This document shows positions 2,389-61,859 of a DNA stretch of 64,000 nt, in pieces. Within the stretch, counting starts at the first letter, position 1, and every line of letters starts with the position of its first letter. The notes below the pieces were generated by a model. The model ran no database searches. It saw only the letters and a list, made by a program, of their open reading frames with translations, and was not told the DNA's origin. The stretch lies in the IMG/VR virus record IMGVR_UViG_3300043409_000785, positions 9,647 to 73,646 of that record; one strand, given 5' to 3'. Source of the stretch: a virus. The position numbers and the translations under genes are program-made.

Positions 2389-2463
2389 TGTGATGTAGCT
2401 CAGTGGTAGAGCAGAGAACTCATAATTCTTTGGTCCTTGGTTCAAATCCAAGCTTCACAACCA
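2389..2463 (+). tRNA. tRNA with CAT anticodon (Met or Ile2)
   Basis: Cloverleaf; gagaa-ctCATaa-ttctt; TTCAAAT T-loop; encoded CCA. Confidence 0.85.
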
Positions 2464-2570
2464 GTATGCGGTGCGGTTCATGGTGTTGCTTGTAAAGCTG
2501 CATCTCGTGGGTGTTAAAACCATGAACCAAATAGCCCATAGCCTAGGGGCTTTATAAATTAGGTTGACTT

Positions 2571-2860
2571 TGCTGGTGGGAAAGAAACCAGCACTATCAA
2601 GAGAGTAGATCAGAGTGGCAGGTTAACTGCAACCTTGTCAAACAATTGCCAAGTGAAGACGTAATAGCTTGGCATGGATTTGGTGTTCAACAGGAGCATG
2701 GACTAGCTATCCTACGCAAAGGTTGAACCACAGCAGCAAATCGCTGGATAGTATTGATCTACTCCCTTGATGGTGTAACGTAATTTGCGTACTAGCTCCG
2801 AAGTACAAGGAATCAAGCTAGGGTGCTTGAGGCTCAAAAGGCATGATCGGCCCCATCAAC
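2571..2860 (+). ncRNA. Putative structured ncRNA, cassette B
   Basis: Hairpin 2571-2593; 21-bp stem 2592-2612/2755-2775 enclosing several hairpins. Confidence 0.55.
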
Positions 2861-2874
2861 TACCAATGGCGCTT

Positions 2875-3054
2875 TGCTGGTTTAGCGTCGATACAAATCA
2901 AACCAGTACCATCAAGTAAGAATCAAGGAGTCCGTTAATCACGGAAACAGGAGCAATGACTTAGTATCTTCTTCCTTGGTTCTTTCTTGATGGTTAAGCA
3001 TATACGGGCTTCATGCTCTGTATGTCGGGTTGGGAGTTCCTAGCCGCCATCAAC
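2875..3054 (+). ncRNA. Putative structured ncRNA, cassette C
   Basis: Hairpin 2875-2908; 22-bp stem 2908-2929/2973-2994. Confidence 0.55.
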
Positions 3055-3061
3055 TTTTAAT

Positions 3062-3137
3062 GCGGGCTTGGCCGAATCAGGTTAGGCGGTAGCTGTTATG
3101 GTTACAGATGTGAGTTCAAATCTCATAGCCCGCTTCA
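3062..3137 (+). tRNA. Atypical tRNA with nominal TTA anticodon on a Gly-like body (suppressor-like or pseudo)
   Basis: Acceptor gcgggct/agcccgc; gtagc-tgTTAtg-gttac; T-arm present; 3' end is TCA. Confidence 0.6.
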
Positions 3138-3144
3138 ATTTCAA

Positions 3145-3219
3145 GGGTGTATATTTTAATTGGCAAAATGCTGATCTCCAAAATCAGTGATGGGAGTTTG
3201 AGTCTCGCTACACCCGCCA
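3145..3219 (+). tRNA. tRNA-Trp(CCA)
   Basis: ctgat-ctCCAaa-atcag; acceptor gggtgta/tacaccc; CCA end; T-arm somewhat degenerate. Confidence 0.75.
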
Positions 3220-3226
3220 AGTATTT

Positions 3227-3302
3227 GCTGGTTTAGTTCAATTGGTAGAACGCCTGATTTGTATTCAGGATGTTGAGGGTTCGAGTCCTTTGACCAGCAC
3301 CA
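3227..3302 (+). tRNA. tRNA-Thr(TGT)
   Basis: cctga-ttTGTat-tcagg; canonical D and T arms; CCA end. Confidence 0.9.
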
Positions 3303-3611: not shown

Positions 3612-3861
3612 GAATCAAACAAAATAGGATAGCTTATATCTAAACGAGAATTCTTTGGTGAGTATTATTACCTCTGGGCAATTCAGCAATATGAAGCAGC
3701 CAGGGTATTTCTCAAAAACTGTGGCCGTCCACAAAACGACCACGATAGATTTCTGATTTCAGAAGCAAAGTGGTCTGCTTCATTTTTCAAACAAATATTG
3801 AACTAGGCTAACAAGCCTGTTCTTCTTTTCTTGGTTCAACAACCCTTTAACAAAACAAATC

Positions 3862-5473: not shown

Positions 5474-6598
5474 ATGCAACACGACAGCTACCAGCTACAG
5501 CGCATGTTGGATCAAACCAAGAGCAGTGTCTTTCTTGGCAAGAGTGCTGCTTTCCTTGGTTCAATCTCATCCAACTTAGAGTTTATCTGGGATAACTCTA
5601 TTCCAACAGCAGGCACTGACGGTACCAAACTGTGGTGGAACCCAGACTACTTTCTAGGTCTTCCCCCAAAGTCTCGTAATACGGACTACATGCACGAGTT
5701 ATGGCATGTTGCTTTGCTTCACGGTGTCCGCAGAGACACCCGGGATCCTAAGCAGTGGAACATAGCTTGTGATGTGAAGATAGATCTCATGCTAGAAGAT
5801 GAAGGCTATAGCTTTGATGGCATCAAAGGTGTGCTGACATTCCCAGACCTCAATGCTAGGCAGTATGCTGGATGGGTGGAAGAAGACATTTATGACGATC
5901 TTGTTAAGAACAACTTCCAACCACCACCTAAGTATGAATGCGATATGGTTCCTGGAGGGCCTGGGGACAAACATGCTGTGATCAACAGTGTTGTCAGAGC
6001 TGTGCATCAAGCCAAGCTGGCTAACGCTGCTGGGAGCATTCCTGGCGGCATCGAGGAAATGCTCAACAACTTTCTCTCGCCTGTCGTGCCTTGGGAAACC
6101 CTGCTAAGACGCTGGTTTACCGATATGCTGGACGAGGACTACACCTGGAAGCGGCCTAACCGTCGCTACTCAGACATGTATCTACCGTCTCGTTTTTTGG
6201 ATGATGGCCGCTTGAAGCACTTGGTTTACTACCAGGACGTTTCAGGCTCTGTTTCCAATGCAAATGTACATCGCTTCAACTCGGAGCTGAGTTTTGTCTG
6301 GAAAGAATTCAAACCTCAGAAAATGACCGTGGTGCAGTTCGACACCAAGATCCAAAAGATTGATGAGTTCAAGGAAGGTGATACCTTCAATGAAATCAAG
6401 ATCGTAGGTAGAGGCGGTACGGATTTGCGTTGTGTTCGTGAGCACATCATGGAAACCAAGCCCACTGCTGCCATCATATTCAGTGATCTGGAATGCCCAC
6501 CAATGCGCAAGCTGGACTTTGATATTCCAGTGATCTGGGTTGTCGTTGGGAACAAAGAGGCTGGGGTTAACTTTGGCCATAAGATTCATATAACTTGA
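5474..6598 (+). CDS. Metallopeptidase-like plus vWA domain protein (N4 gp25-like)
   Basis: TAGTDG, HELWH zincin motif, DVSGS MIDAS motif, GRGGTD. Confidence 0.9.
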   Translation: MQHDSYQLQRMLDQTKSSVFLGKSAAFLGSISSNLEFIWDNSIPTAGTDGTKLWWNPDYFLGLPPKSRNTDYMHELWHVALLHGVRRDTRDPKQWNIACDVKIDLMLEDEGYSFDGIKGVLTFPDLNARQYAGWVEEDIYDDLVKNNFQPPPKYECDMVPGGPGDKHAVINSVVRAVHQAKLANAAGSIPGGIEEMLNNFLSPVVPWETLLRRWFTDMLDEDYTWKRPNRRYSDMYLPSRFLDDGRLKHLVYYQDVSGSVSNANVHRFNSELSFVWKEFKPQKMTVVQFDTKIQKIDEFKEGDTFNEIKIVGRGGTDLRCVREHIMETKPTAAIIFSDLECPPMRKLDFDIPVIWVVVGNKEAGVNFGHKIHIT

Positions 6599-6613
6599 AC
6601 CAAGGAAATAAAT

Positions 6614-6748
6614 ATGAAGACCTATATAGTCTATGGCGGCACCGGCAAAGAAGTTGGGTATATCAAAGCCGGTAGCCACAATGCTGCCGAGAAGAAAGCC
6701 CAGAAGAAATATGGCCCAAAAGCCTCCGTGGCCTACACTGAGCTTTGA
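6614..6748 (+). CDS. Small hypothetical protein (44 aa, MKTYIVYGG...)
   Basis: AAGGA RBS; below the ORF-track cutoff; translated by hand. Confidence 0.6.
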   Translation: MKTYIVYGGTGKEVGYIKAGSHNAAEKKAQKKYGPKASVAYTEL

Positions 6749-6761
6749 ACCAAGGAAAGAA

Positions 6762-6998
6762 ATGACTCTGCTTAACTACCCAAGCGAGGAAGTCCTGCAA
6801 TTCGGTGTGCGAGTCTCTGATGCTCTGCTTGACTGTTGCATTAGAAAAACCATGGAAGGCTTGGGTGGTTGTAAACCATACAAGCTTGAGGACTTTGATG
6901 AAGACCTCAGACCGTATATCGAAGCGTACATCGTAGGCAATAACAACAGCAGTATTGCTGTTACCTACGCAGCAATGCGAACCAAGGAAAAAGAATGA
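6762..6998 (+). CDS. Hypothetical protein
   Basis: AAGGA RBS before ATG 6762. Confidence 0.65.
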   Translation: MTLLNYPSEEVLQFGVRVSDALLDCCIRKTMEGLGGCKPYKLEDFDEDLRPYIEAYIVGNNNSSIAVTYAAMRTKEKE

Positions 6999-7776: not shown

Positions 7777-7834
7777 TTTGCTTTGTTTGGGGTTGATGCG
7801 CTTTTGCACAGCCCTGAACCAAGGAATAAATAAT

Positions 7835-8475: not shown

Positions 8476-8494
8476 TTCTTTCCTTGGTTCAAAA

Positions 8495-9448: not shown

Positions 9449-9470
9449 AATCTGAACCAAGGAAAAGAAA

Positions 9471-10317: not shown

Positions 10318-10367
10318 GACCAAAACCTTTTCAACCATTAAGCGGTTCTTTGAACCAAGGAGCAAAC

Positions 10368-14332: not shown

Positions 14333-14653
14333 ATGTCAGACGCTTACCGAGCCAACCGAAAATGCACCGATGAGGACATCATCCGACTCAACAGTGTTGG
14401 ATTGTCCTTGTCCACCATTGCCAAAAAACTAGACTGCCACCCAACCACCATCACGCTGCGATTAAAAGCCCTCAAAATCAATCCAGCTGATACCCGAAGA
14501 ACCTTCATGGAAGATGTGTTCAATGGTATGGCCAAGCCCCAACAAGACTGGCTCATCAGTCAACTAGGGCCACATATTACCATCAAGGACTATGTACAAA
14601 ACCTACTGGTCAAGGATTACTTGACCAGAAATCAATCGAACCAAGGAACATAA
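14333..14653 (+). CDS. HTH DNA-binding protein (conserved N4-like)
   Basis: GLSLSTIAKKLDCHPTTITLRL HTH pattern. Confidence 0.75.
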   Translation: MSDAYRANRKCTDEDIIRLNSVGLSLSTIAKKLDCHPTTITLRLKALKINPADTRRTFMEDVFNGMAKPQQDWLISQLGPHITIKDYVQNLLVKDYLTRNQSNQGT

Positions 14654-15414: not shown

Positions 15415-16719
15415 ATGGATACCAAAGACGAATTGAACCAAGGACAGAGAAAAGCTGCGGAAGGCTTTTTCTCGTGGTTGTTTGACCCATCCTCTAAGGA
15501 ACTCAACATCTCCGGCCCTGGTGGTGTTGGTAAGACCTTCCTCATGGGAAAACTCATTGATGAGATATTGCCTCGTTACTTTGATACTTGCAAGTTGATG
15601 GGTATTCCTCCTGAGTACGACTCGGTGGTGATGACGGCTACCACGAATCAAGCTGCTGAGGTGCTGGGGCTATCCACAGGACGGCCTACTGAAACCGTGC
15701 ATTCCTTCTTCAACCTTACCGTGAAGGATGACTTCAAGACGGGGGAATCTATTCTCACTAAAACCAGGAACTGGGTAGTGCATGAGCGCAAGATCATCTT
15801 TGTAGATGAAGCCTCTATGGTGGATTCTAAATTGCGTAAATACATACTGGAAGGAACACACAACTGCAAGCTAGTCTATGTTGGCGATCATTGCCAACTA
15901 GCACCAGTCAAGGAAACTCTGTCTCCTGTGTACCGAAATGGCTTGCCAATTTTTGTGCTTACAGAGCCAATGAGAAACAGCAAGCAGCCTGCCTTGATGG
16001 CTCTGTGCCAACAGCTCAGAGACACTGTAGAGACTGGCGTATTCAATCCTATCCAGGTTGTTCCTGGCGTCATTGACTGGCTTGACAATCATCAGATTCA
16101 AGCAGAGCTTGCTAATACATTCCTACGTCAAACTCTTGATGCTCGTATTCTGGCTTACACCAATCCCCAAGTAGTAGGTTTCAACGACTACATCCGGGAT
16201 TTGCGCCAGCTTCCTGACGAATACAGTGTGGGTGAGATGTTGATCAGCAACAGTGCTGTTCAGCTCAGTATGACTTCTCGACTGTCTATTCAGGAAGAAG
16301 TGGAGATTGTTGAACAAGCTCCCTTGACCATCATGGAAAAGATTGCTGCTGGTGGCGTAGAACTGGAAGTACGTGAAACCAAACTCCGTACTCGCCTTGG
16401 TTCGGTGGTCAGCGTCAAACTGCCAGTCAACCGGGAGCACTTTGCCCAGCTGGTCAAGTATTTCCAGCAGGCCAAGAACTGGGAACGCTACTTCCATTTG
16501 AAGAACACTTACCCCGATCTGCGTCAACGAGATGCTGCCACGGTGCATAAAGCCCAAGGCAGCACTGTCGAGACGGTGTACATCGACGTAGGTAACCTGA
16601 GTACTTGTCACCAACCCAACACAGCAGCACGTTTGCTGTATGTCGCTGCTACCCGAGCACGTTCCAGGATCGTCATGTATGGTGAACTGGCTCAGAAGTA
16701 CGGAGGCATCATTTACTGA
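15415..16719 (+). CDS. Dda/RecD-like SF1B DNA helicase
   Basis: GPGGVGKT, VDEASM, GDHCQL.PV, TVHKAQGST, YVAATRA. Confidence 0.93.
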   Translation: MDTKDELNQGQRKAAEGFFSWLFDPSSKELNISGPGGVGKTFLMGKLIDEILPRYFDTCKLMGIPPEYDSVVMTATTNQAAEVLGLSTGRPTETVHSFFNLTVKDDFKTGESILTKTRNWVVHERKIIFVDEASMVDSKLRKYILEGTHNCKLVYVGDHCQLAPVKETLSPVYRNGLPIFVLTEPMRNSKQPALMALCQQLRDTVETGVFNPIQVVPGVIDWLDNHQIQAELANTFLRQTLDARILAYTNPQVVGFNDYIRDLRQLPDEYSVGEMLISNSAVQLSMTSRLSIQEEVEIVEQAPLTIMEKIAAGGVELEVRETKLRTRLGSVVSVKLPVNREHFAQLVKYFQQAKNWERYFHLKNTYPDLRQRDAATVHKAQGSTVETVYIDVGNLSTCHQPNTAARLLYVAATRARSRIVMYGELAQKYGGIIY

Positions 16720-16728: not shown

Positions 16729-17238
16729 ATGATTGACGAAGCAAAAACCATCCTGGCAAAGATTGATGAGACGCTATTTGTGGCTGAAGAGCGTCGCTTG
16801 AAAGCTGCACTTGATGCACTGGTTCTAGCTAATAACGAAGCGCATAAGCAAGTCTTGTCTGGATTTTTTTACAACGGGGATTTCTATTTGCATAGCAAAA
16901 TGCTCCCCAGCTTGCAGAGTGTCAGGGTGCCTAAGCCCACTTTGCACATAAGCTTAAATGATCAAATGCAGGCTCATCTCAAGGACAGGGTAGCTGTCAA
17001 ACTGGACCGGGATCAGATAAAACAGATTCTGTACAAGCTGGTGTATCGGTGTCTCAGTCTTCAGGAAGTTAGGGACGCTCTCCCGGAGTGCCTTGTTTCC
17101 TTGGTTCCAGATTTGGCCAAACTAAGGCGAAAAAAACGCCAAGAAATGTTCTTCTTTGGTGACCAAAGAACAGAGCGACAGTTCCTAATGCTGCTGCCCA
17201 AGATGGAGTTATATGCTGTCTCAAGATTCCTTTATTGA
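16729..17238 (+). CDS. Hypothetical protein (N4 gp38 position)
   Basis: Between helicase and polymerase; RDALPEC motif. Confidence 0.75.
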   Translation: MIDEAKTILAKIDETLFVAEERRLKAALDALVLANNEAHKQVLSGFFYNGDFYLHSKMLPSLQSVRVPKPTLHISLNDQMQAHLKDRVAVKLDRDQIKQILYKLVYRCLSLQEVRDALPECLVSLVPDLAKLRRKKRQEMFFFGDQRTERQFLMLLPKMELYAVSRFLY

Positions 17239-17250: not shown

Positions 17251-19386
17251 ATGAACTACCTTGTTTACTCCAACCCAGAGAAAGCTACATACCCAATTTG
17301 CATTCTGGTGTCTGCCATTCGCAAGACAGAGATCATGGATGCTTATCTCAAAACAGGAATCAATCCTGATGATGTATTGGTCATGGACTTGCACTATAGC
17401 AAAACCCAAAAGAAAACCCCTGTCTCGGAAATCAAAGCCTATCTTAAAGAAGAGCTGGCTCCTGAGCTTACACGGCTGGGTGTGCAACACGTTCTAGTCA
17501 CGGACAGTGATTACTTCAAAGTCTTGACTGGTACTGCTAAGGTAGAAGCTCATCTTGGCTATGTGATGTCTTCTTCCTTTGGTTCCTTCAAGGTGGTTTA
17601 CGCTCCCAGCTACAAGGCGATCTTTTACGATCCTGTAAAGGTCAAGGCTAAGATTGCACAGGCTGTGGATGCTTTGTTGGCTGACCTACAAGGTCAATAT
17701 GCCAAGCCAGGAGAAGGCATTATCAGGTTTGCTGAGTACCCTAGAACCAAAGAAGAAATACAGCAGTGGCTAGACAGGATTCTGGCCATGAACTGTGACC
17801 TGACCTGCGACATTGAAGCATTCAGCCTCAAGCACCATACGGCAGGCATTGGCACTATCACCTTTTGCTGGAACCAGCATGAAGGCATTGCCTTTGCTGT
17901 GGACTACCAGGAGATTCCTGGAGCCATGACAGCACCGTATGGCAAGCAAGTCTTCAACGTAGAAGTCAGGGCCATGTTGCTGAAGTTCTTCCTAGCTTTC
18001 AAGCAAAAGATGATTTATCACAACATCGCCTATGACGCCTACGTGTTGATCTACCAGCTCTTTATGGTGGACATTCTGGACACGGAAGGATTGCTCGATG
18101 GTATGGATGTGATGCTCAGGAATTGGGAATGCACCAAGCTCATCACCTATCTGGCTACCAACTCTTGTGCAGGCAACAAGCTGGGACTGAAGGCCCAAGC
18201 ACAGGAGTTTTCAGGGAATTACAGCATGGACGACATCCATGACATCACCAAGATTCCATTGCCTAAACTGCTGGAATACAACTTGGTGGATGGTCTATCT
18301 ACGTGGTTCGTTTACCACAAGCACTGGAATACTCTGGTGGCAGATCAACAAGAAGAAATTTATCAGACACTCTTCAAGCCAGCAACTCTGGACATCATCC
18401 AGATGCAGCTGACAGGTTTGCCATTGAACATGGAACGTGTCAAGGAAGTCAAGGCCATCCTACAAGCCATTGAGGATCAGGCTACTTCCGTGATTCAGCA
18501 GTCTCCACTGGTGCAGCAGTACACCCATCACTTGCGAGAAAAGCATGTGGCCAAACGAAACTCAGAGCTGAAGAAGAAGCAAATCACCATGGCAGATGCT
18601 GAGGTATTAGCGGTCAACTTCAATCCGAACTCAGGACCACAACTGCAGGAGTTGTTGTTTGAGATGGTAGGCTTGCCTGTCATTTCTTATACCGACAGCA
18701 AGCAACCTGGAACTGACGGGGATACGTTGAAAGCTTTGCAGAACCATACCAAGGATACCGATGTGCTTTCTTTCCTTGGTTCGTTGATTGACTACAAAGC
18801 AGTCAATAAACTTCTGGTGAGCTTCATTCCTGCATTTGAGGAAGCAGTCCAGGGACCGGATGGCTGGCATTATTTGTTTGGTAGTTTCAACTTGGGAGGC
18901 ACCGTCTCAGGACGGCTATCCAGCTCAAATCCGAATATGCAGAATCTGCCTGCTAACATTGTGATGGTTATCTCTGCTGCTTTGCTGATATTGTTTGAAA
19001 AGCAACTTGAAGGCTTTGTCGAAAAAGGCAAGCTCAATCTGGGCAAGCTCATCAAGAGCTGTTTTCAAGCGCCCCCAGGATGGTTATTTTGTGGCTTGGA
19101 CTTTGCTTCCTTGGAAGACAGGATCAGTGCGCTGACCACCAAAGATCCCGCTAAGTTGCTCGTGTACGTTGACGGGTTCGACGGCCACTGTTTACGCGCT
19201 CATGCCTACTTTGGGGAGCATATGCCAGAAATCATTCTTGCTGCCGAAACAGATCGCTGTTTTTTGGTAAATGTAGGTGGCAAGGAATTATCTGTAATGT
19301 GTGGTACATTAGTTACCTGTCCAGATGGGCAGGTTAGAAAAGTGGAGGATTATTTTGAACTGGTTACCGATAAAAAACTTCCCTAA
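17251..19386 (+). CDS. Family A DNA polymerase, N-terminal piece (3'-5' exonuclease through motif A)
   Basis: CDIEAF, HNIAYD, YNLVD exonuclease motifs; TVSGRLSSSNPNMQN; GLDFASLEDRI; DGH; no motif B or C. Confidence 0.93.
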   Translation: MNYLVYSNPEKATYPICILVSAIRKTEIMDAYLKTGINPDDVLVMDLHYSKTQKKTPVSEIKAYLKEELAPELTRLGVQHVLVTDSDYFKVLTGTAKVEAHLGYVMSSSFGSFKVVYAPSYKAIFYDPVKVKAKIAQAVDALLADLQGQYAKPGEGIIRFAEYPRTKEEIQQWLDRILAMNCDLTCDIEAFSLKHHTAGIGTITFCWNQHEGIAFAVDYQEIPGAMTAPYGKQVFNVEVRAMLLKFFLAFKQKMIYHNIAYDAYVLIYQLFMVDILDTEGLLDGMDVMLRNWECTKLITYLATNSCAGNKLGLKAQAQEFSGNYSMDDIHDITKIPLPKLLEYNLVDGLSTWFVYHKHWNTLVADQQEEIYQTLFKPATLDIIQMQLTGLPLNMERVKEVKAILQAIEDQATSVIQQSPLVQQYTHHLREKHVAKRNSELKKKQITMADAEVLAVNFNPNSGPQLQELLFEMVGLPVISYTDSKQPGTDGDTLKALQNHTKDTDVLSFLGSLIDYKAVNKLLVSFIPAFEEAVQGPDGWHYLFGSFNLGGTVSGRLSSSNPNMQNLPANIVMVISAALLILFEKQLEGFVEKGKLNLGKLIKSCFQAPPGWLFCGLDFASLEDRISALTTKDPAKLLVYVDGFDGHCLRAHAYFGEHMPEIILAAETDRCFLVNVGGKELSVMCGTLVTCPDGQVRKVEDYFELVTDKKLP

Positions 19387-20796: not shown

Positions 20797-21198
20797 ATGA
20801 GCCAAAACCTTTCCACCCACCGTTTCCGATTCCTTGTCGCTGGCGAGATCATCTTTAACCAAGCTGACAGCGATGTCACGCACTCGGTACGGCTCAATGC
20901 CATGATTGCCCACACCGATGTCAACCTGCCAGCTCGCCTCATCGGCAAGGCCCAGCAGACCCTGCAAATGCTGCTGTTCAAGCGCATGGGTGAGTCTGCT
21001 GAAGCCGCTGATATCGCTATGCCCAAGATCACTGTCCATGACGTGGTAATCCTCAACATCAGCAACCTTGGTTGGATGAGCGAAGAAGAATTCAATGCTC
21101 CCCCCGAAGGTACTGTGAAGCAGGAGAAGGACAAGAATCCTCTTTCCTTGGTTCCTGCCAATGACGAATTTCACATCATCACCGGGGCTGCAGAATGA
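20797..21198 (+). CDS. Hypothetical protein (conserved N4-like)
   Basis: Synteny; LNISNLGWMSEEEF. Confidence 0.75.
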   Translation: MSQNLSTHRFRFLVAGEIIFNQADSDVTHSVRLNAMIAHTDVNLPARLIGKAQQTLQMLLFKRMGESAEAADIAMPKITVHDVVILNISNLGWMSEEEFNAPPEGTVKQEKDKNPLSLVPANDEFHIITGAAE

Positions 21199-21660: not shown

Positions 21661-22635
21661 GTGAAAGTAACTAACAACAATGACGTGTCACTGGCTCTGG
21701 CCGTGTGGCTGCTCCACGATGAATACGATTACGTCAATGAAAAGAACTACATCAGCGTCACCACCCTGATGAAGCCTTTACGGCAAATCATCCTCCCACC
21801 ACGAATCCAGCAAGGCCAGCATGAAGTGCCTGATGTGATGGACTATGCTTCCCGTGCTTTGGGTAACTCCATGCACGCTGCCATTGAACGTGCCTGGACG
21901 GTGGGCCATAAACGCTCTCTGGAGTTGTTGGGCTATCCTGAGAATGTGATTGACCGTGTTCGTATCAATCCACCCGATGCTGTAGTTTTGGCATGCAAGG
22001 CAGAAGGTAAATTGATTATCCCAATCTATTTGGAGCAACGTGCTCTACGTCCACTCGATGGCTACGTCATCGGTGGCAAGTTCGACATGGTGGCTGAGGG
22101 CATTGTGCAGGACTACAAGAGCACCAGTGCTCATAAGTGGAACAAGTTTTCTAGCGATAGTGACTACAAACTTCAAGGTTCCCTATACCGCTGGTTGAAC
22201 CAAGACAAAATAACAGAAGACTTTGTGCGGATCAACTTCATCTTCACTGACTGGAAGAAGTTGGATTCAATCAAAGATCCTACTTACCCCAAGCATCGTA
22301 TCATGCACAGGGATATTCCTTTGCTGAGCATTGAAGAAACGGAAGCATGGGCTAGACGCAAGCTAGCCCTGATCAAGAAATACTGGAATACCCCTGAAAA
22401 GGAAATTCCCCGCTGCACTGATGAAGAACTTTGGATTGGTAAGTCTGTATTCAAATACTACTCTGATCCAACCAGTACATCAGGCAAGTCAACTAAGAAC
22501 TTCACTACTCTCAGAGAAGCCAATCAGTTCCGTGCTGAGAAAGGTAAGGGACTGGTGATCTCTGTTCCTGGTTCGCCAAAACGTTGCGGCTACTGCAACG
22601 CCTTTCCAATCTGCACTCAACGAGAACAAATATGA
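21661..22635 (+). CDS. PD-(D/E)XK exonuclease (N4 gp42-like)
   Basis: GGKFD...QDYKST, LQGSLY, C-terminal C.YC....C. Confidence 0.85.
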   Translation: MKVTNNNDVSLALAVWLLHDEYDYVNEKNYISVTTLMKPLRQIILPPRIQQGQHEVPDVMDYASRALGNSMHAAIERAWTVGHKRSLELLGYPENVIDRVRINPPDAVVLACKAEGKLIIPIYLEQRALRPLDGYVIGGKFDMVAEGIVQDYKSTSAHKWNKFSSDSDYKLQGSLYRWLNQDKITEDFVRINFIFTDWKKLDSIKDPTYPKHRIMHRDIPLLSIEETEAWARRKLALIKKYWNTPEKEIPRCTDEELWIGKSVFKYYSDPTSTSGKSTKNFTTLREANQFRAEKGKGLVISVPGSPKRCGYCNAFPICTQREQI

Positions 22636-24785: not shown

Positions 24786-24856
24786 CCAAACAGGAACCAA
24801 GAAGAGAAAGGGTATTTCTTTTCTTGGTTCCAAACCTTTAATCGACAGGAGAAACA

Positions 24857-26395: not shown

Positions 26396-26962
26396 ATGAA
26401 GGTAGCTGTCCTGGGCATGGACCCCTCAATGAGAAATTGGGGACTTGCCGAGGCAGTGCTTGATCTGGAAACTGGCTTGCTGGATACCCCTATTCTTTCC
26501 TTGGTTCAACCCAAGGATTTAGTAGGCAAACAGGTACGTCAAAACTCTTCAGATCTGCACCTGACAACACAGCTGGCTGAGGTTGTTTTACCTATGGCGC
26601 GTAAGGCAAAGGTCATCTTTGTAGAAGTGCCCATTGGCTCTCAATCGGCTAGAGCTATGGCCAGTTACGGGTTTTGTGTCGGTCTTCTGGGGGCAATTAG
26701 AGCTGAAGGGATCCCCTTCATCGAAGTTACTCCTACCGAAGTGAAGAAGGTCTTCACCGGCAAGGCTGATGCAACCAAAGGTGAAATGATAGAGAAAGCT
26801 CTATCTGAGTATCCTGATGCTGTCTTCCCCATGCACAATGGGAAAGTTAGCGCAGCCAAGACAGAGCATGTTGCCGATGCACTGGCTGCAATCCATGCGG
26901 GAGTGCAAACTCCCGTTTTTAAAAACCTGATGCGTTTATTGAGTGTCAGCAAATCCAACTAG
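26396..26962 (+). CDS. RuvC-like Holliday junction resolvase
   Basis: LGMDPS, VEVP.GSQS, ATKGEMI, EHVADA. Confidence 0.88.
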   Translation: MKVAVLGMDPSMRNWGLAEAVLDLETGLLDTPILSLVQPKDLVGKQVRQNSSDLHLTTQLAEVVLPMARKAKVIFVEVPIGSQSARAMASYGFCVGLLGAIRAEGIPFIEVTPTEVKKVFTGKADATKGEMIEKALSEYPDAVFPMHNGKVSAAKTEHVADALAAIHAGVQTPVFKNLMRLLSVSKSN

Positions 26963-41109: not shown

Positions 41110-43263
41110 TTACTGAGGTGCCAGCAGTACCTTGCCAGTTTTAGCCAAGTAAGCTTTAGCACGTTCTGCGACAAGTCTTTCTTGTTCGAGCTTGGCAATA
41201 CGTTCTGCTTCTTTTGCTGCTGCTTCACTGGCTTTTCTAGCTTCAGTCTGTTGACGAAGCCATGTTGCACGAAGTGGTGAATCTTTAGCTGGCTCTTCAG
41301 TAATTGCTTTGGCAATTGCTGTTGAGGCATCACCCCAAGAACCAGTAACACCCTGTTGTGGTATTACCTTGCCAGCAATAGTCTTGGCAACTGGTGGGGG
41401 TTTATCAGTTGTCTTATCTGGAAACTCTTGCTTGGCTACTTTAGAGTTGTCTTGTCTCAGAATGGCGTCTTGGTATTGCTTCTCAGCAGTTGCTAGTCGC
41501 TGCTCAGAACGAAGCACCGAACCAGCAAGAGCTGGGTTATCTGCAGCACGAGCACGAAGCTGCAGATACTCTTGATTTGCTGCTGTGAATTTATCTTTAG
41601 CAGCATCGACAGCCGCACCAATAGCAACGATGGCGTCATTCTCAGCTACTCGACTTTGACCCATTGGCGTTTTTAGCGCATTTGCGAGAGCCTCAATACG
41701 CTTCTCGTTTGGTTCATAACCAGTACCTTTAAAGGCATTTCCAGTAAGCCATTGTGGCAATGTGAACCTAACACTACCAGAACCCATACCTTTATTGAGC
41801 AAAATCTCACCGGCCAATGCAGGTGTAATTTCGTATTTTTCAGATATTCTGTTAATTTCCTCCATAAGTACAGGATGTGGGATAGTCTTCCATTTTTCAT
41901 TAAGAGCGGTAGCAATGTCAGATGGGTTACTGAGATCACCTCCCTTAGCCATTACGCTAGATAGACCAGTAAGGTTCTTCATACTCAGTGCCATCTTGGC
42001 ATCTAACGTAGCACTTGCCCCAGCACTATTGAGTTCTGCTGGTGTATTTAACTTAGCACGTTTAGCTGCATCAATCAGTCCTGCAACAGCGTCAGTACCG
42101 CCGTTAACTGCCTGTTTATCATAGTAGTCAAGACGTTCCATCCAAGTGCTGCGATTTTCAGCGTGCTTGGGTTGTTTTAGCAAATCTTCATAGTGTGCTC
42201 TTCGCAGAGCATTGAACTTAACTGGATCACCTCCAGACTGTTCAACCCATTTCTTAGCATTACCTGGGCCTTGGTTCACAGCTGCATCCATAGCCGTACC
42301 CTGAATAGCTGGTGGCAAGCTATCACCACCAATTGCATCCCAGTAGCGTTCTTTGTAAAGCTGAACTGCTTTGTCTTTTGTCAGGTTTTTAACATCAATG
42401 TCTGGGTTTGCTTTTTGGTTTATACCAAAATTAGCAGGAGCACCACTAGCACCATCACTAGAAGTGTATCCACCCTCACGACGAAGAATTGATTCTGTGG
42501 CCCCAGCAAACCCTGGAGTAATGCCACCGCCACCAACTGCACCAGCTTGAGGTCCAAACGCAGAACCCCAACCTGCTGCTGCAATAAGGTTTTGTACACC
42601 CTGCTTAACTTCAGGTGCTGCATTAGCCCATTTTGGATTCTTAAAAAGAAGTGCTGGAATGTCAGAAGCAACACCAATTCCTGGAATGATTTCTGAAGCA
42701 ATAGCTGAAGCTTCTTGGCTTTGAACATCCTTGCGGATACCAACACCTGTGTTTGCAATGCCACCAACATTCTTGAACATATCAAGAAGCTGGTCACCCC
42801 GCAAATTACCAAAGGATGCAGCACCCTGGGCTGTACGCATACCTGCTGTGTCGCCTCTAGCAGCAGCACCAGCATAGATCAACAAATCAGGAACAGAAGC
42901 GTCTAATGCAGCATCTTTTTCCTGAGTACGCTTCATGTTGTACATGTTGGTGTTCTGAGCTGTCAGGTCACTAACACCCTTGTCCATTGCATTAAATGTA
43001 TCAGTGCTAACTCGACGGGGATCAATACCTTGCAGAAATTCGCCAGAAGCTAGAGCCTGTTGTCTGGCTGCAGGGTCTTGGTAACGCTGCATTGCTGCTC
43101 TAATTCCTTGGTTCACACCATTGGAAATAGAGTCGTCGTAAGCAGTGACAGCACCAGTGGCTGTAGCACCAGCACGGTTGATCAGATCACTGAAAGTCTT
43201 GTAGCCATCCAGACTCCCTGAGAAGTTTGGGGCATCTACATTGCGCCAAGTAAGTTGAGCCAT
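41110..43263 (-). CDS. Ejection protein (N4 gp51-like) with an internal GH108 lysozyme-like domain
   Basis: MAQLTWRNVDAP N-terminus; REGGY...FGI...LT...A..LY..RYW...D.AVN.G. Confidence 0.85.
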   Translation of the reverse strand: MAQLTWRNVDAPNFSGSLDGYKTFSDLINRAGATATGAVTAYDDSISNGVNQGIRAAMQRYQDPAARQQALASGEFLQGIDPRRVSTDTFNAMDKGVSDLTAQNTNMYNMKRTQEKDAALDASVPDLLIYAGAAARGDTAGMRTAQGAASFGNLRGDQLLDMFKNVGGIANTGVGIRKDVQSQEASAIASEIIPGIGVASDIPALLFKNPKWANAAPEVKQGVQNLIAAAGWGSAFGPQAGAVGGGGITPGFAGATESILRREGGYTSSDGASGAPANFGINQKANPDIDVKNLTKDKAVQLYKERYWDAIGGDSLPPAIQGTAMDAAVNQGPGNAKKWVEQSGGDPVKFNALRRAHYEDLLKQPKHAENRSTWMERLDYYDKQAVNGGTDAVAGLIDAAKRAKLNTPAELNSAGASATLDAKMALSMKNLTGLSSVMAKGGDLSNPSDIATALNEKWKTIPHPVLMEEINRISEKYEITPALAGEILLNKGMGSGSVRFTLPQWLTGNAFKGTGYEPNEKRIEALANALKTPMGQSRVAENDAIVAIGAAVDAAKDKFTAANQEYLQLRARAADNPALAGSVLRSEQRLATAEKQYQDAILRQDNSKVAKQEFPDKTTDKPPPVAKTIAGKVIPQQGVTGSWGDASTAIAKAITEEPAKDSPLRATWLRQQTEARKASEAAAKEAERIAKLEQERLVAERAKAYLAKTGKVLLAPQ

Positions 43264-46932: not shown

Positions 46933-46960
46933 GATCATTCTTTCCTTGGTTCAAAATAAA

Positions 46961-47639: not shown

Positions 47640-47664
47640 GTATTTATTCCTTGGTTCAAAATTG

Positions 47665-56168: not shown

Positions 56169-56199
56169 GATTGTAGTTTGGAACCAAGGAATAAACAAC

Positions 56200-59538: not shown

Positions 59539-59540
59539 AG

Positions 59541-60251
59541 TTAGACCCATCCATTTTTATAAAATCTATTGCTGGTAACTGAAAGACTGGTGCTTACCAA
59601 GTCTTGTTCTACAGCTTCCCGACACAGAGCCTCGTACATGGACAGGTGTTCTTGTGACTTCAGGGTAGCTTCTTGAGTGTTCATTCCACTGTACACATGG
59701 TACGCGATGTAGCAACGCATAGCTTCATGCAGACAGTCTGGAAGAACAATTTCTTGTTCAGCATTATCCACTATAAGCTTGTTATGCCTAGCCTGGTAGA
59801 GAAGAATAAGAACTCTTCCTTCCACTGGTCTAGGAACTTGAAGCACATTGCCTTGTGGTGTGAACACTGACTCAGGCTGACCTTCATCATTCAAAGGGAG
59901 AGTGCAACCAAACTCGTCTTGAACTGAAAGAATACGAATCACATCTTCTGTGAAAGGTTCTCGCATCAGGTCTTTGATGTAGGTGTATGGCTGAGTAGTG
60001 GAACCAAGAAAAGAAGAAGACTCGGCAAACTTCTTGAGCAAATGGTAGTTGGTGATGTGATCTACCATCTCAATCATCAGATCGTTCTCTTTTAGAACAA
60101 ACTTGGTATGCAGCCTGAGCAATGCTTCATTCGCTGCCAAGATGATCTTGGGCTTGCTTGCTTCCAAGATAGTTCCATTGCCATCACCACCCAGAGCAAT
60201 GTTGGAAAACTTCCCGTGAGAGAGGTCTTGATAGAGTTGTTCGATGTTCAT
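59541..60251 (-). CDS. Head-tail adaptor (N4 gp67-like)
   Basis: Synteny; NEALLRLH..F.LKE, C-terminal GWV. Confidence 0.8.
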   Translation of the reverse strand: MNIEQLYQDLSHGKFSNIALGGDGNGTILEASKPKIILAANEALLRLHTKFVLKENDLMIEMVDHITNYHLLKKFAESSSFLGSTTQPYTYIKDLMREPFTEDVIRILSVQDEFGCTLPLNDEGQPESVFTPQGNVLQVPRPVEGRVLILLYQARHNKLIVDNAEQEIVLPDCLHEAMRCYIAYHVYSGMNTQEATLKSQEHLSMYEALCREAVEQDLVSTSLSVTSNRFYKNGWV

Positions 60252-60254
60252 AAT

Positions 60255-61859
60255 TTAAACGATGTAGGAGGATATACGATTGACCTCTGTGTTTTCTTCT
60301 TCTGGTTCCCAAACGTCATCCTCCTGCTTGGCCAGCTTGATGGAATCCGACGGTTTCCAGGGCATGAGAAATCCCAGCATGGAAATAGTGTCGATGCAGT
60401 CATCCTTGCCCTTCAGGCCGGAAGATGTTGCCAAGCGGATCTGCCCCATGAACAATCCCATGATGACGCTGTGTTTCATTTCCTCTGGGAAGTACATTTT
60501 TCCTGCTTTGAACCAAGGAACAACCAAATTGAAGCGGGAGAGTTTGTCCGTGATAGGACGGATACCAGGGGCACCACCCTTTTCAGTGCTGGCAAAGTTG
60601 AACCAGATATTCCGGTTCACCATTTCTTGCTGCAGCCACTTGATGAAAGCGCCTTGTTGGCCAGTGATTTCTACGCCGACTTGCTGTGGCCTGTACAGTT
60701 GAACCAAACGAAACAAGTCATTGATGGTCTTGTCCATGGTCTGCCGTTCGCAGATGCCATCTACCCAAAACCAATCACCATTTGAATTGTAAGCCCAAAC
60801 AGAAATTACTGAATAGTCTGCTGTTTGTTTTTCTGAAGTGGCAAAGTCTGTGGTGATATAAAAGTTGAATGAGCCTTGGTTGGCAATCAACTTGGCACGG
60901 TTGTACCAGCGAATTTCTGCATCCTGAACCAAGCGTTCTTCCTCAGAAGTAATCCGAAGCATCAGCTCCTGAAAGAATCCTGACAGCTTGCCGGTCTTGA
61001 CGGCCATATCGTATTGAGTTTGTATATAGTCAAAGCTGAAACGATCTTCCCAAGCACCGACAAAATCCTCACGGCTGCAGGGAAAGCGTTCACACACCGG
61101 CCAGACGTTTACATCCCAGGCACCAGACTCCACCGCTTCGATCAGGATGTCTTCCGTGTTGAAAGGTGTACCGTTGAAGATGACCTTCCTTCTCGTTGGG
61201 TCCAGCGCATGGTTCACCCCCTTGTACACCGTGTCCTTGATGGCCAGCATGGCAGCTCGGCTCTTGGAGTCATCGTCACTAACCAGATCGTCCAACACTG
61301 CAATGACAGGACGTTTGCCAAAGATCTTGGTTCCTCGCAGACCAGTTTTTGCCCCGAACATCTTGATGCCCAAACGATGCCCATCCTTGTTCTGGAACTC
61401 GATGTAGTTATCGGTAAAGACAGCCCCAGGAAGCCACTCTTTCAGGAAGTCTGAGTTGTGGTACCGAAACTCAATGTTCTTTCTGGCCGACTTCACACCG
61501 TTATCCATGGAGTCTGAGACATAGATCATGCCCTCAACTTTGCCGAACCCCGGTAAGTAACCAAACACTCCCAGGAACAGCGACAGGTATTCCATAAACA
61601 GTGTGGTCTTGGCTGCACCACGAAAGCACAGATTGGCCACATAGTCTGACGCAGCTTGGGCAACCTTGTCCAACATAGCCAGATGAACAGGTGGAGTCTT
61701 GTGAGACTCCCCTACACCTCCGTTGACCAGCTTGATGAAGTTCATGAAGATCAGTGCAAACTCACTCGGCACATAGTCTGGTGAATTCAGATAGCGGTAA
61801 TCAACGTTGTCAAGCCATACATCCAGCTCTTGCTTAATCAGAGTTCTGGGCGTACTCAT
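60255..61859 (-). CDS. terL: Terminase large subunit
   Basis: FRGAAKTT, VLDDL, GTPF, TTDFA, DDCID. Confidence 0.93.
   Translation of the reverse strand: MSTPRTLIKQELDVWLDNVDYRYLNSPDYVPSEFALIFMNFIKLVNGGVGESHKTPPVHLAMLDKVAQAASDYVANLCFRGAAKTTLFMEYLSLFLGVFGYLPGFGKVEGMIYVSDSMDNGVKSARKNIEFRYHNSDFLKEWLPGAVFTDNYIEFQNKDGHRLGIKMFGAKTGLRGTKIFGKRPVIAVLDDLVSDDDSKSRAAMLAIKDTVYKGVNHALDPTRRKVIFNGTPFNTEDILIEAVESGAWDVNVWPVCERFPCSREDFVGAWEDRFSFDYIQTQYDMAVKTGKLSGFFQELMLRITSEEERLVQDAEIRWYNRAKLIANQGSFNFYITTDFATSEKQTADYSVISVWAYNSNGDWFWVDGICERQTMDKTINDLFRLVQLYRPQQVGVEITGQQGAFIKWLQQEMVNRNIWFNFASTEKGGAPGIRPITDKLSRFNLVVPWFKAGKMYFPEEMKHSVIMGLFMGQIRLATSSGLKGKDDCIDTISMLGFLMPWKPSDSIKLAKQEDDVWEPEEENTEVNRISSYIV

Follow-up and report, generated by a model that had tools for sequence, protein, structure and literature searches.

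Short DNA words that recur along a genome have been described in several settings. Chi, DUS/USS and KOPS are short asymmetric words that occur at about one copy per kb or denser and lie in genes in several frames, where the force acts on the DNA and not on the protein; their single copies are dispensable and turn over. All three kinds act as signals in host chromosomes, where host machines read them; strong polarity is a feature of Chi and KOPS. Primase sites are short words found on both strands all along phage genomes: the T7 primase site is 5'-GTC, the T4 sites are 5'-GTT/GCT, AEP primases start at 3'-G-pyr-pyr-5', and primers start with a purine. The start-associated sequences of Cluster K mycobacteriophages and the stoperators of Cluster A are 13-17-nt phage-specific motifs present in tens of copies, part of which overlap the RBS upstream of starts; they are intergenic, keep one orientation relative to transcription and are limited to one cluster. 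The site-specific single-strand interruptions of the T5, phiKMV-like and tf phages also involve a short conserved word scattered through the genome of a podophage or siphophage; they lie on one strand, at a few to a dozen sites.

A word with some features of each of these systems is found in a 64-kb window, the whole stretch of DNA analysed here, which is most of the 73.6-kb (73,646-bp) genome of an N4-like (Schitoviridae) podophage from a freshwater metagenome. A sequence-only reading had listed 25 positions of a dispersed 10-mer. An exact GAACCAGGA-type check found an exact GAACCAAGGA at all 25 (12 on the + strand, 13 on the - strand), where 0.17 are expected by chance (maximum 2 in 100 dinucleotide-preserving shuffles), and the repeated motif is real. 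The count for the full 73,646-bp record is 26 (13+13). The 10-mer forms the conserved middle of a family of graded sites with the 17-mer consensus ttGAACCAAGgAAaaAA; sites with three or fewer mismatches from this consensus number 37 in the window compared with 0.29 expected. The 8-mer core, GAACCAAG, is present in 62 copies genome-wide compared with 9.3 expected (order-3 Markov), and the word family is at the top of the k-mer ranking for k = 7-12. The variants and purine-rich tail that had been reported were also recovered: GAACCAARRA has 45 matches against 0.84 expected, with the tails GGA (25), GAA (12), AGA (7) and AAA (1), and the consensus over the 62 GAACCAAG sites, ttGAACCAAG[G28/A25]AArRAA, ends in purines. 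Within this family, which numbers about 60-100 sites, the 25 copies are those best conserved. The 10-mer is the form that a short DNA word, A-R-C-C-A-R, commonly preceded by R-A, takes in this phage, a local and elongated dialect. A dispersed mobile repeat (REP/MITE-like) is rejected because conservation ends at about 17 nt, outside which the information content is zero. A literature search found no paper that describes the word.

By context, nine of the 25 copies are in the RBS position, 4-9 nt before an ATG, nine are antisense in genes, three are sense in genes, three are antisense between genes, and one is in the T arm of a tRNA-Met (Table 1). The motif therefore doubles in part as an RBS and lies antisense and within genes in several frames, as had been read from the sequence. 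The copy at 2434-2443 is the only one of the 25 with the G53-T54-T55-C56 and paired stem of a T arm; a second tRNA (Gly, 2299-2378) has TGGTTC without the 10-mer. The tens of copies and the partial overlap with the RBS (9/25) recall the Cluster K and Cluster A motifs. In contrast to those motifs, most copies here are in CDSs, half of those antisense, and the core is common to a whole family of lytic phages.

Table 1. Positions of the 10-mer copies, of related sites and of the candidate primase gene in the window
Feature	Position	Strand	Location	Further detail
GAACCAAGGA	2434..2443	-	phage tRNA-Met(CAT), 2389-2463	+ strand is T stem/loop CTTGG-TTCAAAT-CCAAG
GAACCAAGGA	2973..2982	-	non-coding, within tRNA cluster	antisense to tRNA genes
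GAACCAAGGA	5553..5562	-	antisense in VWA/DUF2201 gene (5474-6598)	
GAACCAAGGA	6597..6606	+	RBS position	ATG 6614 is 7 nt on
GAACCAAGGA	6747..6756	+	RBS position	ATG 6762 is 5 nt on; exact 17-mer 6745-6761
GAACCAAGGA	6979..6988	+	RBS position, end of ORF 6762-6998	ATG 6995 is 6 nt on
GAACCAAGGA	7816..7825	+	RBS position	ATG 7835 is 9 nt on
GAACCAAGGA	8481..8490	-	antisense, 19-nt spacer between stop 8475 and thymidylate synthase (thyA) ATG 8495	4 nt upstream of thyA ATG; exact 17-mer 8476-8492
GAACCAAGGA	9454..9463	+	RBS position	ATG 9471 is 7 nt on
GAACCAAGGA	10352..10361	+	RBS position	rIIA ATG 10368 is 6 nt on
GAACCAAGGA	14638..14647	+	RBS position, end of ORF 14333-14653	ATG 14655 is 7 nt on
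GAACCAAGGA	15435..15444	+	sense in RecD/Dda-like helicase gene	read L-N-Q-G
GAACCAAGGA	17098..17107	-	antisense in ORF 16729-17238	
GAACCAAGGA	18773..18782	-	antisense in DNA polymerase gene (17251-19386)	
GAACCAAGGA	21145..21154	-	antisense in ORF 20797-21198	
GAACCAAGGA	26498..26507	-	antisense in RuvC-like resolvase gene	exact 17-mer 26493-26509
GAACCAAGGA	29498..29507	+	antisense in virion RNA polymerase gene (27627-41006, -)	
GAACCAAGGA	31284..31293	-	sense in virion RNA polymerase gene	
GAACCAAGGA	31729..31738	+	antisense in virion RNA polymerase gene	
GAACCAAGGA	35381..35390	+	antisense in virion RNA polymerase gene	
GAACCAAGGA	43105..43114	-	sense in virion protein gene 41110-43263	
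GAACCAAGGA	46943..46952	-	RBS position	4 nt before ATG of gene 46099-46938; exact 17-mer 46938-46954
GAACCAAGGA	47648..47657	-	RBS position	8 nt before ATG of gene 47010-47639
GAACCAAGGA	56181..56190	+	antisense, non-coding, between endolysin stop and small - strand ORF	ATG of the small ORF 12 nt downstream on - strand
GAACCAAGGA	60510..60519	+	antisense in large terminase gene (60255-61859, -)	
GAACCAAGAA inverted pair	24793..24830	24794 +, 24821 -	8 nt past primase stop, ahead of Sak4-like gene	17-bp perfect hairpin, RNA fold -25.9 kcal/mol; only inverted pair examined
GAACCAAGAA variant	3828..3837	-	antisense, upstream of ATPase gene	~25 nt before ATG 3862
Similar variant	50616-50625	+	antisense, upstream of - strand gene	gene starts at 50583
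Similar variant	62920-62929	+	antisense, upstream of - strand gene	gene starts at 62897
gp43/dns-type primase-helicase gene	22632..24785	+	candidate reader	717 aa, PriCT_1 residues 653-706

The sequence-only reading had suggested that selection acts on the DNA, and had proposed codon-preserving shuffles as a check. Under this null (300 synonymous shuffles each, protein sequence unchanged), the 10-mer is observed 10 times antisense in CDSs where 0.26 is expected (maximum 3) and 5 times sense where 0.62 is expected (maximum 3). For GAACCAAG the corresponding numbers are 18 antisense (1.9 expected, maximum 6) and 23 sense (5.0 expected, maximum 12). The enrichment survives, and therefore a force does act on the DNA. 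Synonymous-shuffle enrichment in both sense and antisense holds in six of six genomes tested, and all six reading frames are enriched in four of four. When a coding-aware null is applied, the pooled O/E is 2.28, 2.46, 2.57 and 3.06 in the four classes of gene orientation and motif orientation. In all 38 of 38 genomes the raw counts are higher for the early/middle coding strand, but the observed +:- ratio of 1.48 compares with 1.42 expected under the coding-aware null, which leaves no strand polarity. The raw bias is thus explained by coding constraints and does not support a directional process; a polar signal of the Chi/KOPS kind is rejected on the same ratio. The N4-like word shares with Chi, DUS/USS and KOPS its short asymmetric form, density, placement in several frames and turnover of single copies, but it belongs to a phage family with many hosts and, unlike Chi and KOPS, lacks polarity.

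The motif had been taken to be a feature of this genome. It is present there, but the underlying word is lineage-wide: the RARCCAR family has an O/E of at least 2.1 in 22 of 24 Schitoviridae genomes, the two without it being Vibrio phage VBP32 and Vibrio 1.169.O. Four related genomes (G001-G004) carry 53, 66, 52 and 64 copies of GAACCAAG. Coliphage N4 has 110 copies of GAACCAG compared with about 26-29 expected, and the word is densest in PG11, where TGAACCA reaches 207 copies in 72 kb, the highest number for one 7-mer. Of the related loci, 54 are 10 kb or longer, and in every one GAACCA is more frequent than its order-1 expectation, mostly by 2-6 fold and by ~1.2-1.9 fold in the six weakest. 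Lineages differ in dialect: GAACCAG in N4; GAACCAAG in Achromobacter, P. putida and rhizobial phages; AAGCCAA and AAACCAA in P. aeruginosa Litunavirus; AAGCCAG and AAACCAG in Pectobacterium and Klebsiella phages; and TGAACCAG in some vibriophages. The dialects all share C-A-R as their core, with a purine where +1 is presumed to be. In most N4-like phages, whatever their host, both strands carry more copies of the word than protein and codon demands allow, sense and antisense and in six frames. That it is a DNA-level word of the whole family is very likely. Just short of an even prospect is the broader proposal that N4-like phages carry an undescribed genome-wide "self" word, A-R-C-C-A-R, with lineage dialects, which is read on either strand by a conserved phage machine. 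If so, this machine could guide replication priming or helicase loading by sequence, or it could mark the genome in a new way, and its specificity would co-evolve with the genome text.

The sites are old and have been retained. Between orthologues of ~50% amino-acid identity, 18-28% of GAACCA sites are at the identical position, compared with 4-7.5% for all hexamers. At identical amino acids, 336 of 560 cases also agree in the motif nucleotides (0.60, versus 0.24 for other hexamers), which is 2.02 times the codon-usage expectation for the motif and 1.42 times for other hexamers. Short-term constraint, on the other hand, is absent in the comparison of N4 with two relatives that are 1.7-1.8% diverged: GAACCAG carries 15 substitutions versus 13.4 expected and 12 versus 14.1, and sites turn over as control 7-mers do (20/114 variable versus 983/5432). 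Strong constraint on single sites is therefore lacking. If selection is responsible, it would have to work on the density of the word; otherwise the force is something other than selection.

The reader of the word is probably encoded by the phage. With low confidence, the word is explained as a site, present in many copies, at which a conserved replication protein of the phage would recognise the DNA or start primers. Taken as a whole, the explanation of a site family read by a conserved phage protein, with the primase preferred, is tentative, and the choice of the gp43/dns primase in particular is doubtful. According to this explanation, a directional force carried by the phage lineage would act on the DNA itself, and the word would be an individually dispensable recognition site, repeated over the whole genome on either strand. 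The family-specific gp43/dns primase-helicase may preferentially prime or load at these sites. Opposite the invariant C-A-R the template would read 3'-G-T-Y-5', so a primer made there would begin with a purine, and the reverse complement YTGGYTY contains G-Y-T; both fit the known primase sites, which are likewise short and dispersed on both strands. Primer synthesis in this phage would then run on into the purine-rich tail, which would have become AAGGA(A) and been put to further use as a Shine-Dalgarno sequence.

The primase gene is core to the family. It was found in 23 of 23 other genomes tested, including all 21 word-positive genomes and also both negatives, and its family is confined to Schitoviridae-type records (475 records). 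Several observations stand against this candidate. VBP32 has the primase (48% identity) but a word O/E of only 1.3. Known primase sites are 3-5 nt and only ~1.2-2 fold enriched in T7, whereas the N4-like 7-8-mers are enriched 7-13 fold, and the 17-nt consensus of this phage exceeds any primase site known to us. The spacing of the sites is close to random (CV 0.78-0.99). The AF2 model of the primase has a pLDDT of 42, and its fold is unconfirmed by the model. Two other proteins had been named earlier for pull-down: the wHTH ORF 203-607 has no detectable homologue in 10 Schitoviridae genomes or T7, and the HTH-like ORF 14333 is present in only 6 of 9 motif-bearing relatives, compared with the word in 22 of 24 genomes. 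Judged by sequence comparison, both are poor candidates for the conserved core.

The reader may instead be a conserved double-strand DNA-binding protein, architectural or condensing, or acting in packaging or ejection, for which many weak sites in any orientation would organise the genome. The O/E of 2.3-3.1 is alike in both orientations and both gene blocks, as expected of a duplex site, and the consensus of 15-17 nt in this phage is of footprint size. The other five genomes profiled likewise show a weak A at +8 (in G001 an A-rich tail spans +8), and some sites keep their position between distant relatives. Furthermore, the sites are denser in non-coding DNA, which makes up 11% but contains 14 of the 62 GAACCAAG copies, and another 10 are at starts. 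The search for a candidate protein was negative, however. The two word-less genomes have all of the core proteins, and the RecD/Dda-like helicase, the sole gene that tracks the word (19/21 positives, 0/2 negatives), is missing in PG11. The word is also asymmetric, unlike the palindromes usually bound by dimers, and short-term constraint is absent. A duplex-binding reader is on balance unlikely.

The sequence-only reading had proposed binding, nicking or modification sites, for example for injection, packaging, replication or protection. Modification or nicking at the word, for example T5-type interruptions or a protective base or backbone modification, is improbable. Modification motifs are typically of this form, short and asymmetric with hundreds of copies in each genome; the phage lineage carries the word across hosts, and GAACCA contains GAAC and CCA, which are phosphorothioation motifs of the Dnd and Ssp systems. 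Against this, no methyltransferase, Dnd/Ssp-like gene or nickase was found when 61 window proteins were compared with PHROGs and 12 with Pfam. The protein at 5474, an "HNH endonuclease" in PHROGs, is a DUF2201 metallopeptidase/VWA protein by Pfam, and the sole true HNH ORF (19325-19948) interrupts the polymerase gene in the manner of a homing endonuclease. Known phage nick sites, moreover, are strand-specific and few, whereas this word has hundreds of sites on both strands, and targets of defence-related modification are usually not enriched.

The word might also be a neutral by-product of the phage replication machinery, through a context-dependent bias in mutation or mismatch repair, without a function of its own, comparable to very-short-patch repair acting on CCWGG-related words in E. 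coli. The uniform O/E over four orientation classes and six frames, the lack of purifying selection at 1.7-1.8% divergence with control-like turnover, and the lineage-specific dialects, as expected if enzyme specificity drifts, are consistent with such a bias. One neighbour, C-to-T at position 5, is scarce in seven of eight genome/word pairs (O/E 0.0-0.6; 0.9 in Vibrio phage phi 1). Nevertheless, the one-substitution neighbours are not depleted, almost all others being at or above expectation (most O/E at least 1), and therefore the word is no simple mutational attractor. The low neighbour, with 3-17 copies expected (3-10 in the seven low pairs), cannot supply ~100 extra copies, and it contains CTAG/CTAA, rare anyway. 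We know of no precedent for a bias that recognises 7-8 nt, or ~17 nt as in this phage, and the copies are concentrated in non-coding DNA and at gene starts. A neutral origin is accordingly given little credence.

A transcription signal for one of the phage RNA polymerases, either RNAPII initiation with a single-strand-binding cofactor or a pause or processing signal in genome-long transcripts, is most improbable. RNAPII is core to the family, the raw counts favour the early/middle coding strand, and the middle transcripts of LUZ7 and LIT1 extend rightward across the late region (PMC9163698). The strand preference vanishes under the coding-aware null, however, and early/middle-block copies antisense to the sole transcribed strand have an O/E of 2.46 compared with 2.28 for sense copies. 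Promoters of the N4 type, which number tens at most and are hairpins in the case of vRNAP, are rejected: N4 RNAPII promoters are AT-rich from -7 to +2 (PMC4496689), and early promoters are hairpins, as are the GC-rich middle promoters of LUZ7 (PMC9163698), whereas the word is neither hairpin nor AT-rich and occurs in both orientations. Its 100-200 copies are far too many for promoters.

Reading by a host factor, whether Chi-like, uptake-type or through a sigma-70 -35-like TTGAAC in late transcription, is largely refuted and keeps a very small probability. The N4 reverse complement CTGGTTC has CTGGT in common with E. coli Chi, the word tends to end in G in enterobacterial phages and in A in others, and TTGAAC resembles TTGACA. 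But phages of E. coli, Achromobacter and P. putida have the core in common, and it is found in phages of alpha-, beta- and gamma-proteobacteria; the TT prefix is present at only part of the GAACCAAG sites; and the polarity that Chi would need is lacking. No enrichment of the N4 dialect was seen in T7 or in 50 kb of E. coli K-12. Among 185,579 species genomes the 17-mer gave 96 single hits scattered over all phyla, with no locus holding more than one copy, and a host uptake-type (DUS/USS-like) word is rejected since no bacterial genome has multiple 17-mers. The copies are not a host signal.

An extended RBS or start-associated sequence alone, with the other copies left to chance or as relics, can practically be dismissed: relatives do have 3-8 start-associated GAACCAAG copies each (10/62 in this phage), but 16 of the 25 exact copies lie outside the RBS position, nine are antisense in CDSs versus 0.26 expected, the thyA copy is at the Shine-Dalgarno location in the wrong orientation, and the codon null, the six-frame enrichment and the N4 dialect, which has no Shine-Dalgarno sequence and only one start-associated GAACCAG in 110, refute RBS usage as the sole explanation, an explanation that would have been fatal to the proposal of the sequence-only reading. 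Since AAGGA is a good Shine-Dalgarno sequence and nine exact copies precede an ATG at a suitable distance, the tail AAGGA(A) probably serves in this phage as the Shine-Dalgarno of at least 9 genes.

The decamer GAACCAAGGA occurs in exact form at all 25 coordinates at which the sequence-only reading had listed it in the window, 12 on the + and 13 on the - strand, against 0.17 expected and a largest value of 2 in 100 dinucleotide-preserving shuffles. The whole 73,646-bp record, of which the window is bases 9647-73646, contains 26 copies (order-3 Markov expectation 0.5). Under the same Markov model, the family of the short word A-R-C-C-A-R, to which the decamer belongs, takes the top place in the over-representation ranking of k-mers for k = 7-12; GAACCAA is found 102 times in the record (31 expected) and the 8-mer core GAACCAAG 62 times (9.3 expected). 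Aligned, these 62 sites share the consensus ttGAACCAAG(G 28, A 25, C 5, T 4)AArRAA. No conservation beyond it was found in their flanks, and a mobile repeat is ruled out on that ground. The 17-mer consensus TTGAACCAAGGAAAGAA, allowing up to three mismatches, has 37 matches in the window (0.29 expected), four of them exact. The variants described earlier are equally real: GAACCAARRA matches 45 times (0.84 expected), ending in GGA (25), GAA (12), AGA (7) or AAA (1). The original observation is confirmed, and it is even stronger than had been supposed.

The copies lie in diverse contexts, listed in the table with the other features. A partial role in ribosome binding, as had been proposed, is seen for nine of the 25, and the remark that many copies are antisense or within genes also stands, with nine antisense and three sense copies inside CDSs. 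At the thymidylate synthase gene (product N-terminus MKQYLDFL), the copy at 8481 takes up the preceding 19-nt spacer, precisely the place expected for a Shine-Dalgarno (SD) sequence, but its orientation is wrong for one. An inverted pair directly 3' of the primase gene produces a 17-bp hairpin. Two of the exact 17-mers are antisense, so the long form is kept also where it is useless for translation. An origin of the word in the tRNA T arm was considered and rejected: only one of the 25 copies is a T arm, and the lineage-specific versions ("dialects") AAGCCAA and AAGCCAG are incompatible with a T loop. The tRNA genes themselves form a cluster in an otherwise "gene-poor" stretch; the one with anticodon TTA (Rfam tRNA, 45.9 bits) would read UAA and is suppressor-like.

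Placement of the motif copies and of other features in the window
Feature	Position in window	Strand	Remarks
GAACCAAGGA in ribosome-binding position	6597, 6747, 6979, 7816, 9454, 10352, 14638, 46943, 47648		sense; 4-9 nt 5' of ATG; AAGGA = SD
GAACCAAGGA within CDS, far from starts	15435, 31284, 43105		sense
GAACCAAGGA within CDS	5553, 17098, 18773, 21145, 26498, 29498, 31729, 35381, 60510		antisense
GAACCAAGGA in non-coding spacers	2973, 8481, 56181		antisense
GAACCAAGGA as T arm of phage tRNA-Met	2434
Exact TTGAACCAAGGAAAGAA	8476, 26493		antisense
Variant copies	before genes starting at 3862, 24857, 50583, 62897		antisense; ~15-26 nt 5' of the gene
Seven tRNA genes	2299-3551	+	Gly(ACC), Met(CAT), TTA anticodon, Trp(CCA), Thr(TGT), Arg(TCT), Gly(TCC)
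AAA ATPase	3862-4905		adjacent to DUF2201/VWA-like protein
DUF2201/VWA-like protein	5474-6598		PHROGs label "HNH endonuclease" (phrog_1314)
Thymidylate synthase	ATG at 8495
DNA polymerase, split gene	17251-19386, 20176-20709
ORF between the polymerase parts	19325-19948		HNH_3, NUMOD4
gp43/dns primase-helicase	22632-24785	+
Virion RNA polymerase	27627-41006		4459 aa
Major capsid protein	47702-49165		487 aa
Match to contig bases 1-643	61964-62608		71610-72254 of the record

Coding bias was assessed by shuffling synonymous codons inside each gene, leaving the proteins unchanged (300 shuffles). The enrichment from which selection on the DNA had been proposed persists under this null. Within CDSs, GAACCAAGGA has 10 antisense copies vs 0.26 expected and 5 sense copies vs 0.62; the 8-mer core has 18 antisense copies vs 1.9 (maximum 6) and 23 sense copies vs 5.0 (maximum 12). 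Enrichment in both orientations under synonymous shuffling holds in six of six genomes, and enrichment in all six frames in four of four. The early/middle coding strand is favored in the raw counts of all 38 genomes (33/33 oriented by the capsid gene, plus the whole genomes of five relatives), but this universal polarity is a coding artefact. The +:- ratio predicted by the shuffles, 1.42, matches the observed 1.48, and the observed/expected ratios (O/E) are similar in the four classes (2.28 for sense and 2.46 for antisense copies in + genes; 2.57 and 3.06, respectively, in - genes); hence real polarity is absent. Enrichment is no lower for copies antisense to the sole transcribed strand than for sense copies, an argument for the word acting as DNA, not RNA. 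Spacing is near random (CV 0.78-0.99), with no regular period.

The sequence-only reading took the motif to be a feature of this genome. Relatives share it: the word is family-wide, operates at the DNA level, and is present in the model phage N4 too. GAACCA exceeds the order-1 expectation in 54 of 54 related IMG/VR loci (10 kb or longer, surrounding the capsid gene), mostly 2-6 fold, and ~1.2-1.9 fold in the six weakest. Among the whole genomes of relatives, GAACCAAG is present in 53 copies in the metagenomic G001, 66 in Achromobacter phage Axy12 (G002), 52 in G003, and 64 in Pseudomonas putida phage Zuri, with ~10 expected in each. In coliphage N4 (100% identical to EF056009), the dialect GAACCAG is the top 7-mer, with 110 copies (26-29 expected). 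After 18 further named Schitoviridae genomes, chosen across the portal-protein range, were added, R-A-R-C-C-A-R has an order-1 O/E of at least 2.1 in 22 of 24 genomes; that of the T7 control is 1.5. Dialects include AAGCCAA (89 copies) and AAACCAA (52) in P. aeruginosa phage DL64, AAGCCAG (74) and AAACCAG (76) in Pectobacterium phage Possum, AAACCAG (133) in Klebsiella HS106, and GAACCAA (122) and AAACCAA (123) in V. cholerae phi 1. The Vibrio phages vB_VhaP_PG11 (OP745480) and D285 (OZ195850), with ~72-kb genomes, carry 207 and 181 copies of TGAACCA (~10 expected), roughly one every 350-400 bp, and 93 and 109 copies of CTGAACC; they offer the best starting point for a search for the word's reader. 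The two exceptions are Vibrio phages VBP32 (O/E 1.3) and 1.169.O (O/E 1.0), though the latter has 46 copies of AACCAAG vs 11 expected. These words are not enriched in T7 or in 50 kb of E. coli K-12.

Between orthologues of ~50% amino-acid identity, GAACCA positions are identical in 18-28% of cases vs 4-7.5% for all hexamers, ranking 2-23 among ~390-730 frequent hexamers. At sites whose covered amino acids agree, the nucleotides agree as well in 336 of 560 cases (0.60) vs 0.24 for other hexamers; this is 2.02 times the codon-usage expectation, vs 1.42 times for the others. Five of six frames show a large excess; it is absent (1.06x) in TGG-TTC, where codon usage alone predicts identity. Proteins >2500 aa were excluded from these comparisons, and the close pair G002/G003 from those of nucleotide identity and codon usage. 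Constraint was not detected between N4 and Jura (1220 substitutions) or VEc25 (1279 substitutions): the 770 motif nucleotides carry 15 and 12 substitutions vs 13.4 and 14.1 expected. Similarly, the three phages differ at 20 of 114 sites, vs 983 of 5432 for control 7-mers. Since substitutions and turnover are at background here, single sites are dispensable. What keeps the word in place, whatever its nature, acts across many weak sites.

Phyletic profiling of 21 word-positive and two word-negative genomes found no gene strictly tracking the word. Every core gene is also present in both negatives: RNAPII subunits, AAA ATPase, VWA protein, polymerase, exonuclease, primase, Sak4-like protein, SSB, virion RNA polymerase (vRNAP), structural proteins and terminase. 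A RecD/Dda-like helicase is found in 19 of 21 positives and neither negative, and is absent from PG11, the bearer of the densest word. Two proteins named earlier for DNA pull-down do not suit the conserved core: ORF 203-607 is without detectable homologues in the other genomes, and ORF 14333, HTH-like with Pfam HTH_38 below cut-off, is restricted to the N4/Achromobacter/rhizobial clade. Either might read a lineage-specific extension.

The sites may possibly be priming or loading sites for replication, with the gp43/dns primase-helicase as the favored, low-confidence candidate reader. Its gene is core and confined to the family (475 records), it has a PriCT_1 domain, and such an enzyme must work on both strands, genome-wide. 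Primers begin with a purine, AEP primases start beside template 3'-G-pyr-pyr-5', and T4 primase reads G-Y-T. The C-A-R after a purine-rich stretch, invariant in all dialects, fits these rules, and the word's reverse complement YTGGYTY contains G-Y-T. Against this, VBP32 has the primase without the word, known primase sites in T7 are enriched only 1.2-2 fold, and 17 nt is a long consensus for a site of this kind. From a six-sequence alignment, the N-terminal half may carry putative Walker A/B-like motifs, with a possible DxD motif near residue 525; the AF2 model built on this alignment is too poor for use (mean pLDDT 42, pTM 0.26). PDB sequence search, NCBIfam and relaxed Pfam searches on the halves gave nothing besides PriCT_1, and the protein atlas returned only "DNA primase family", plus DUF3987 in 30% of members. 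The passages of PMC4889955 and PMC4538821 consulted hold nothing on the N4 origin or primase template rules.

Binding of the word as duplex by an architectural or packaging protein is a lesser possibility, consistent with enrichment on both strands. That the word is a target for modification or nicking, as had also been suggested, is unlikely. A neutral mutational by-product is just as improbable: one-substitution neighbors are mostly at or above expectation, the only low one being C-to-T at position 5, which creates CTAG/CTAA, and a neighbor-depletion test gave no clear source word. With neighbors generally at or above expectation, the pattern looks like a degenerate recognition motif, not a single mutational attractor. 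A transcription signal is quite improbable, the word being unlike the N4-type promoters described (vRNAP hairpins; AT-rich -7..+2 for RNAPII; GC hairpins in LUZ7; PMC4496689 section 2.2, PMC9163698). Reading by a host factor is very improbable: the core is common to phages whose hosts span three proteobacterial classes, neither the E. coli nor the T7 control shows enrichment, and the 17-mer has only 96 single scattered matches in 185,579 species genomes. A role solely as ribosome-binding site can practically be discarded, since only 1 of 110 N4 copies is start-associated and the decamer is in such antisense excess in CDSs (10 vs 0.26).

A tail rich in purines or in A follows the word in this phage and G001; here it reads AAGGA(A), and at least nine genes take a copy as SD. 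A DNA-level word common in spacers may have been co-opted as a ribosome-binding site, and the consensus would have been lengthened by this dual use or by a lineage-specific change of reader. Upstream of the window (genome 2000-6000), small early genes each follow a short inverted repeat, ..tcaatca.. and a GGAG SD; judged by sequence, these leaders look like N4-type hairpin early promoters. The GAACCAAGGA leaders, which belong to middle and late genes, are of another type.

No description of the word, as GAACCA/TGGTTC in N4-like phages or TGAACCAG in Schitoviridae, was found in the library of openly accessible papers searched. N4 has been a model phage for 60 years, and N4-like phages are frequent both in therapy collections and in the sea. 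In phages of alpha-, beta- and gamma-proteobacteria alike, the word has shaped both DNA strands and every reading frame of the genome, which points to an unrecognized sequence-specific step in the life cycle; N4 allows direct testing of this step by standard methods. The word and its dialects provide a compact signature to recognize and sub-type Schitoviridae contigs, and recoding or synthesizing such genomes would strip the word unknowingly. For the window, the word explains the unusually long "RBS" common to many genes.

By megablast and PHROGs, the genome is that of a standard N4-like (Schitoviridae) podophage, with early/middle genes on the + strand and late genes on the - strand. It encodes rIIA/B, RecD/Dda-like helicase, DNA polymerase, exonuclease, gp43-type primase, Sak4-like protein, SSB, RuvC-like resolvase, a vRNAP of 4459 aa, major capsid protein, portal and large terminase. 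It occurs in two public DNA runs, both freshwater metagenomes, with no RNA run listed; their assembled contigs are identical over 5001-25000, with no variants, starts or ends. The ORF within the split polymerase gene looks, from its domains, like a homing-endonuclease insertion. The phrog_1314 label appears misleading, as Pfam gives DUF2201 metallopeptidase-like and VWA-like domains; this protein and the adjacent AAA ATPase are core (24/24 genomes). Contig bases 1-643 are 94% identical (604/643) to the right-end segment in the table, and the contig's first genes resemble diverged copies of right-end genes; this may reflect wrap-around assembly from two strains, not a true terminal repeat. The metagenomic G001, which is the record of related locus L016, has a second, unrelated over-represented word: the palindrome GGTACC (KpnI site) is present in 118 copies, where the order-1 expectation is exceeded ~8.5-fold, while GGTACCG has 45 copies vs 3.2 expected. 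The vRNAP of N4 is 3500 aa, shorter than that of this phage. For the major capsid protein, the match to most relatives covers ~409 aa; a longer match is seen in just four IMG/VR relatives (L009-L012).
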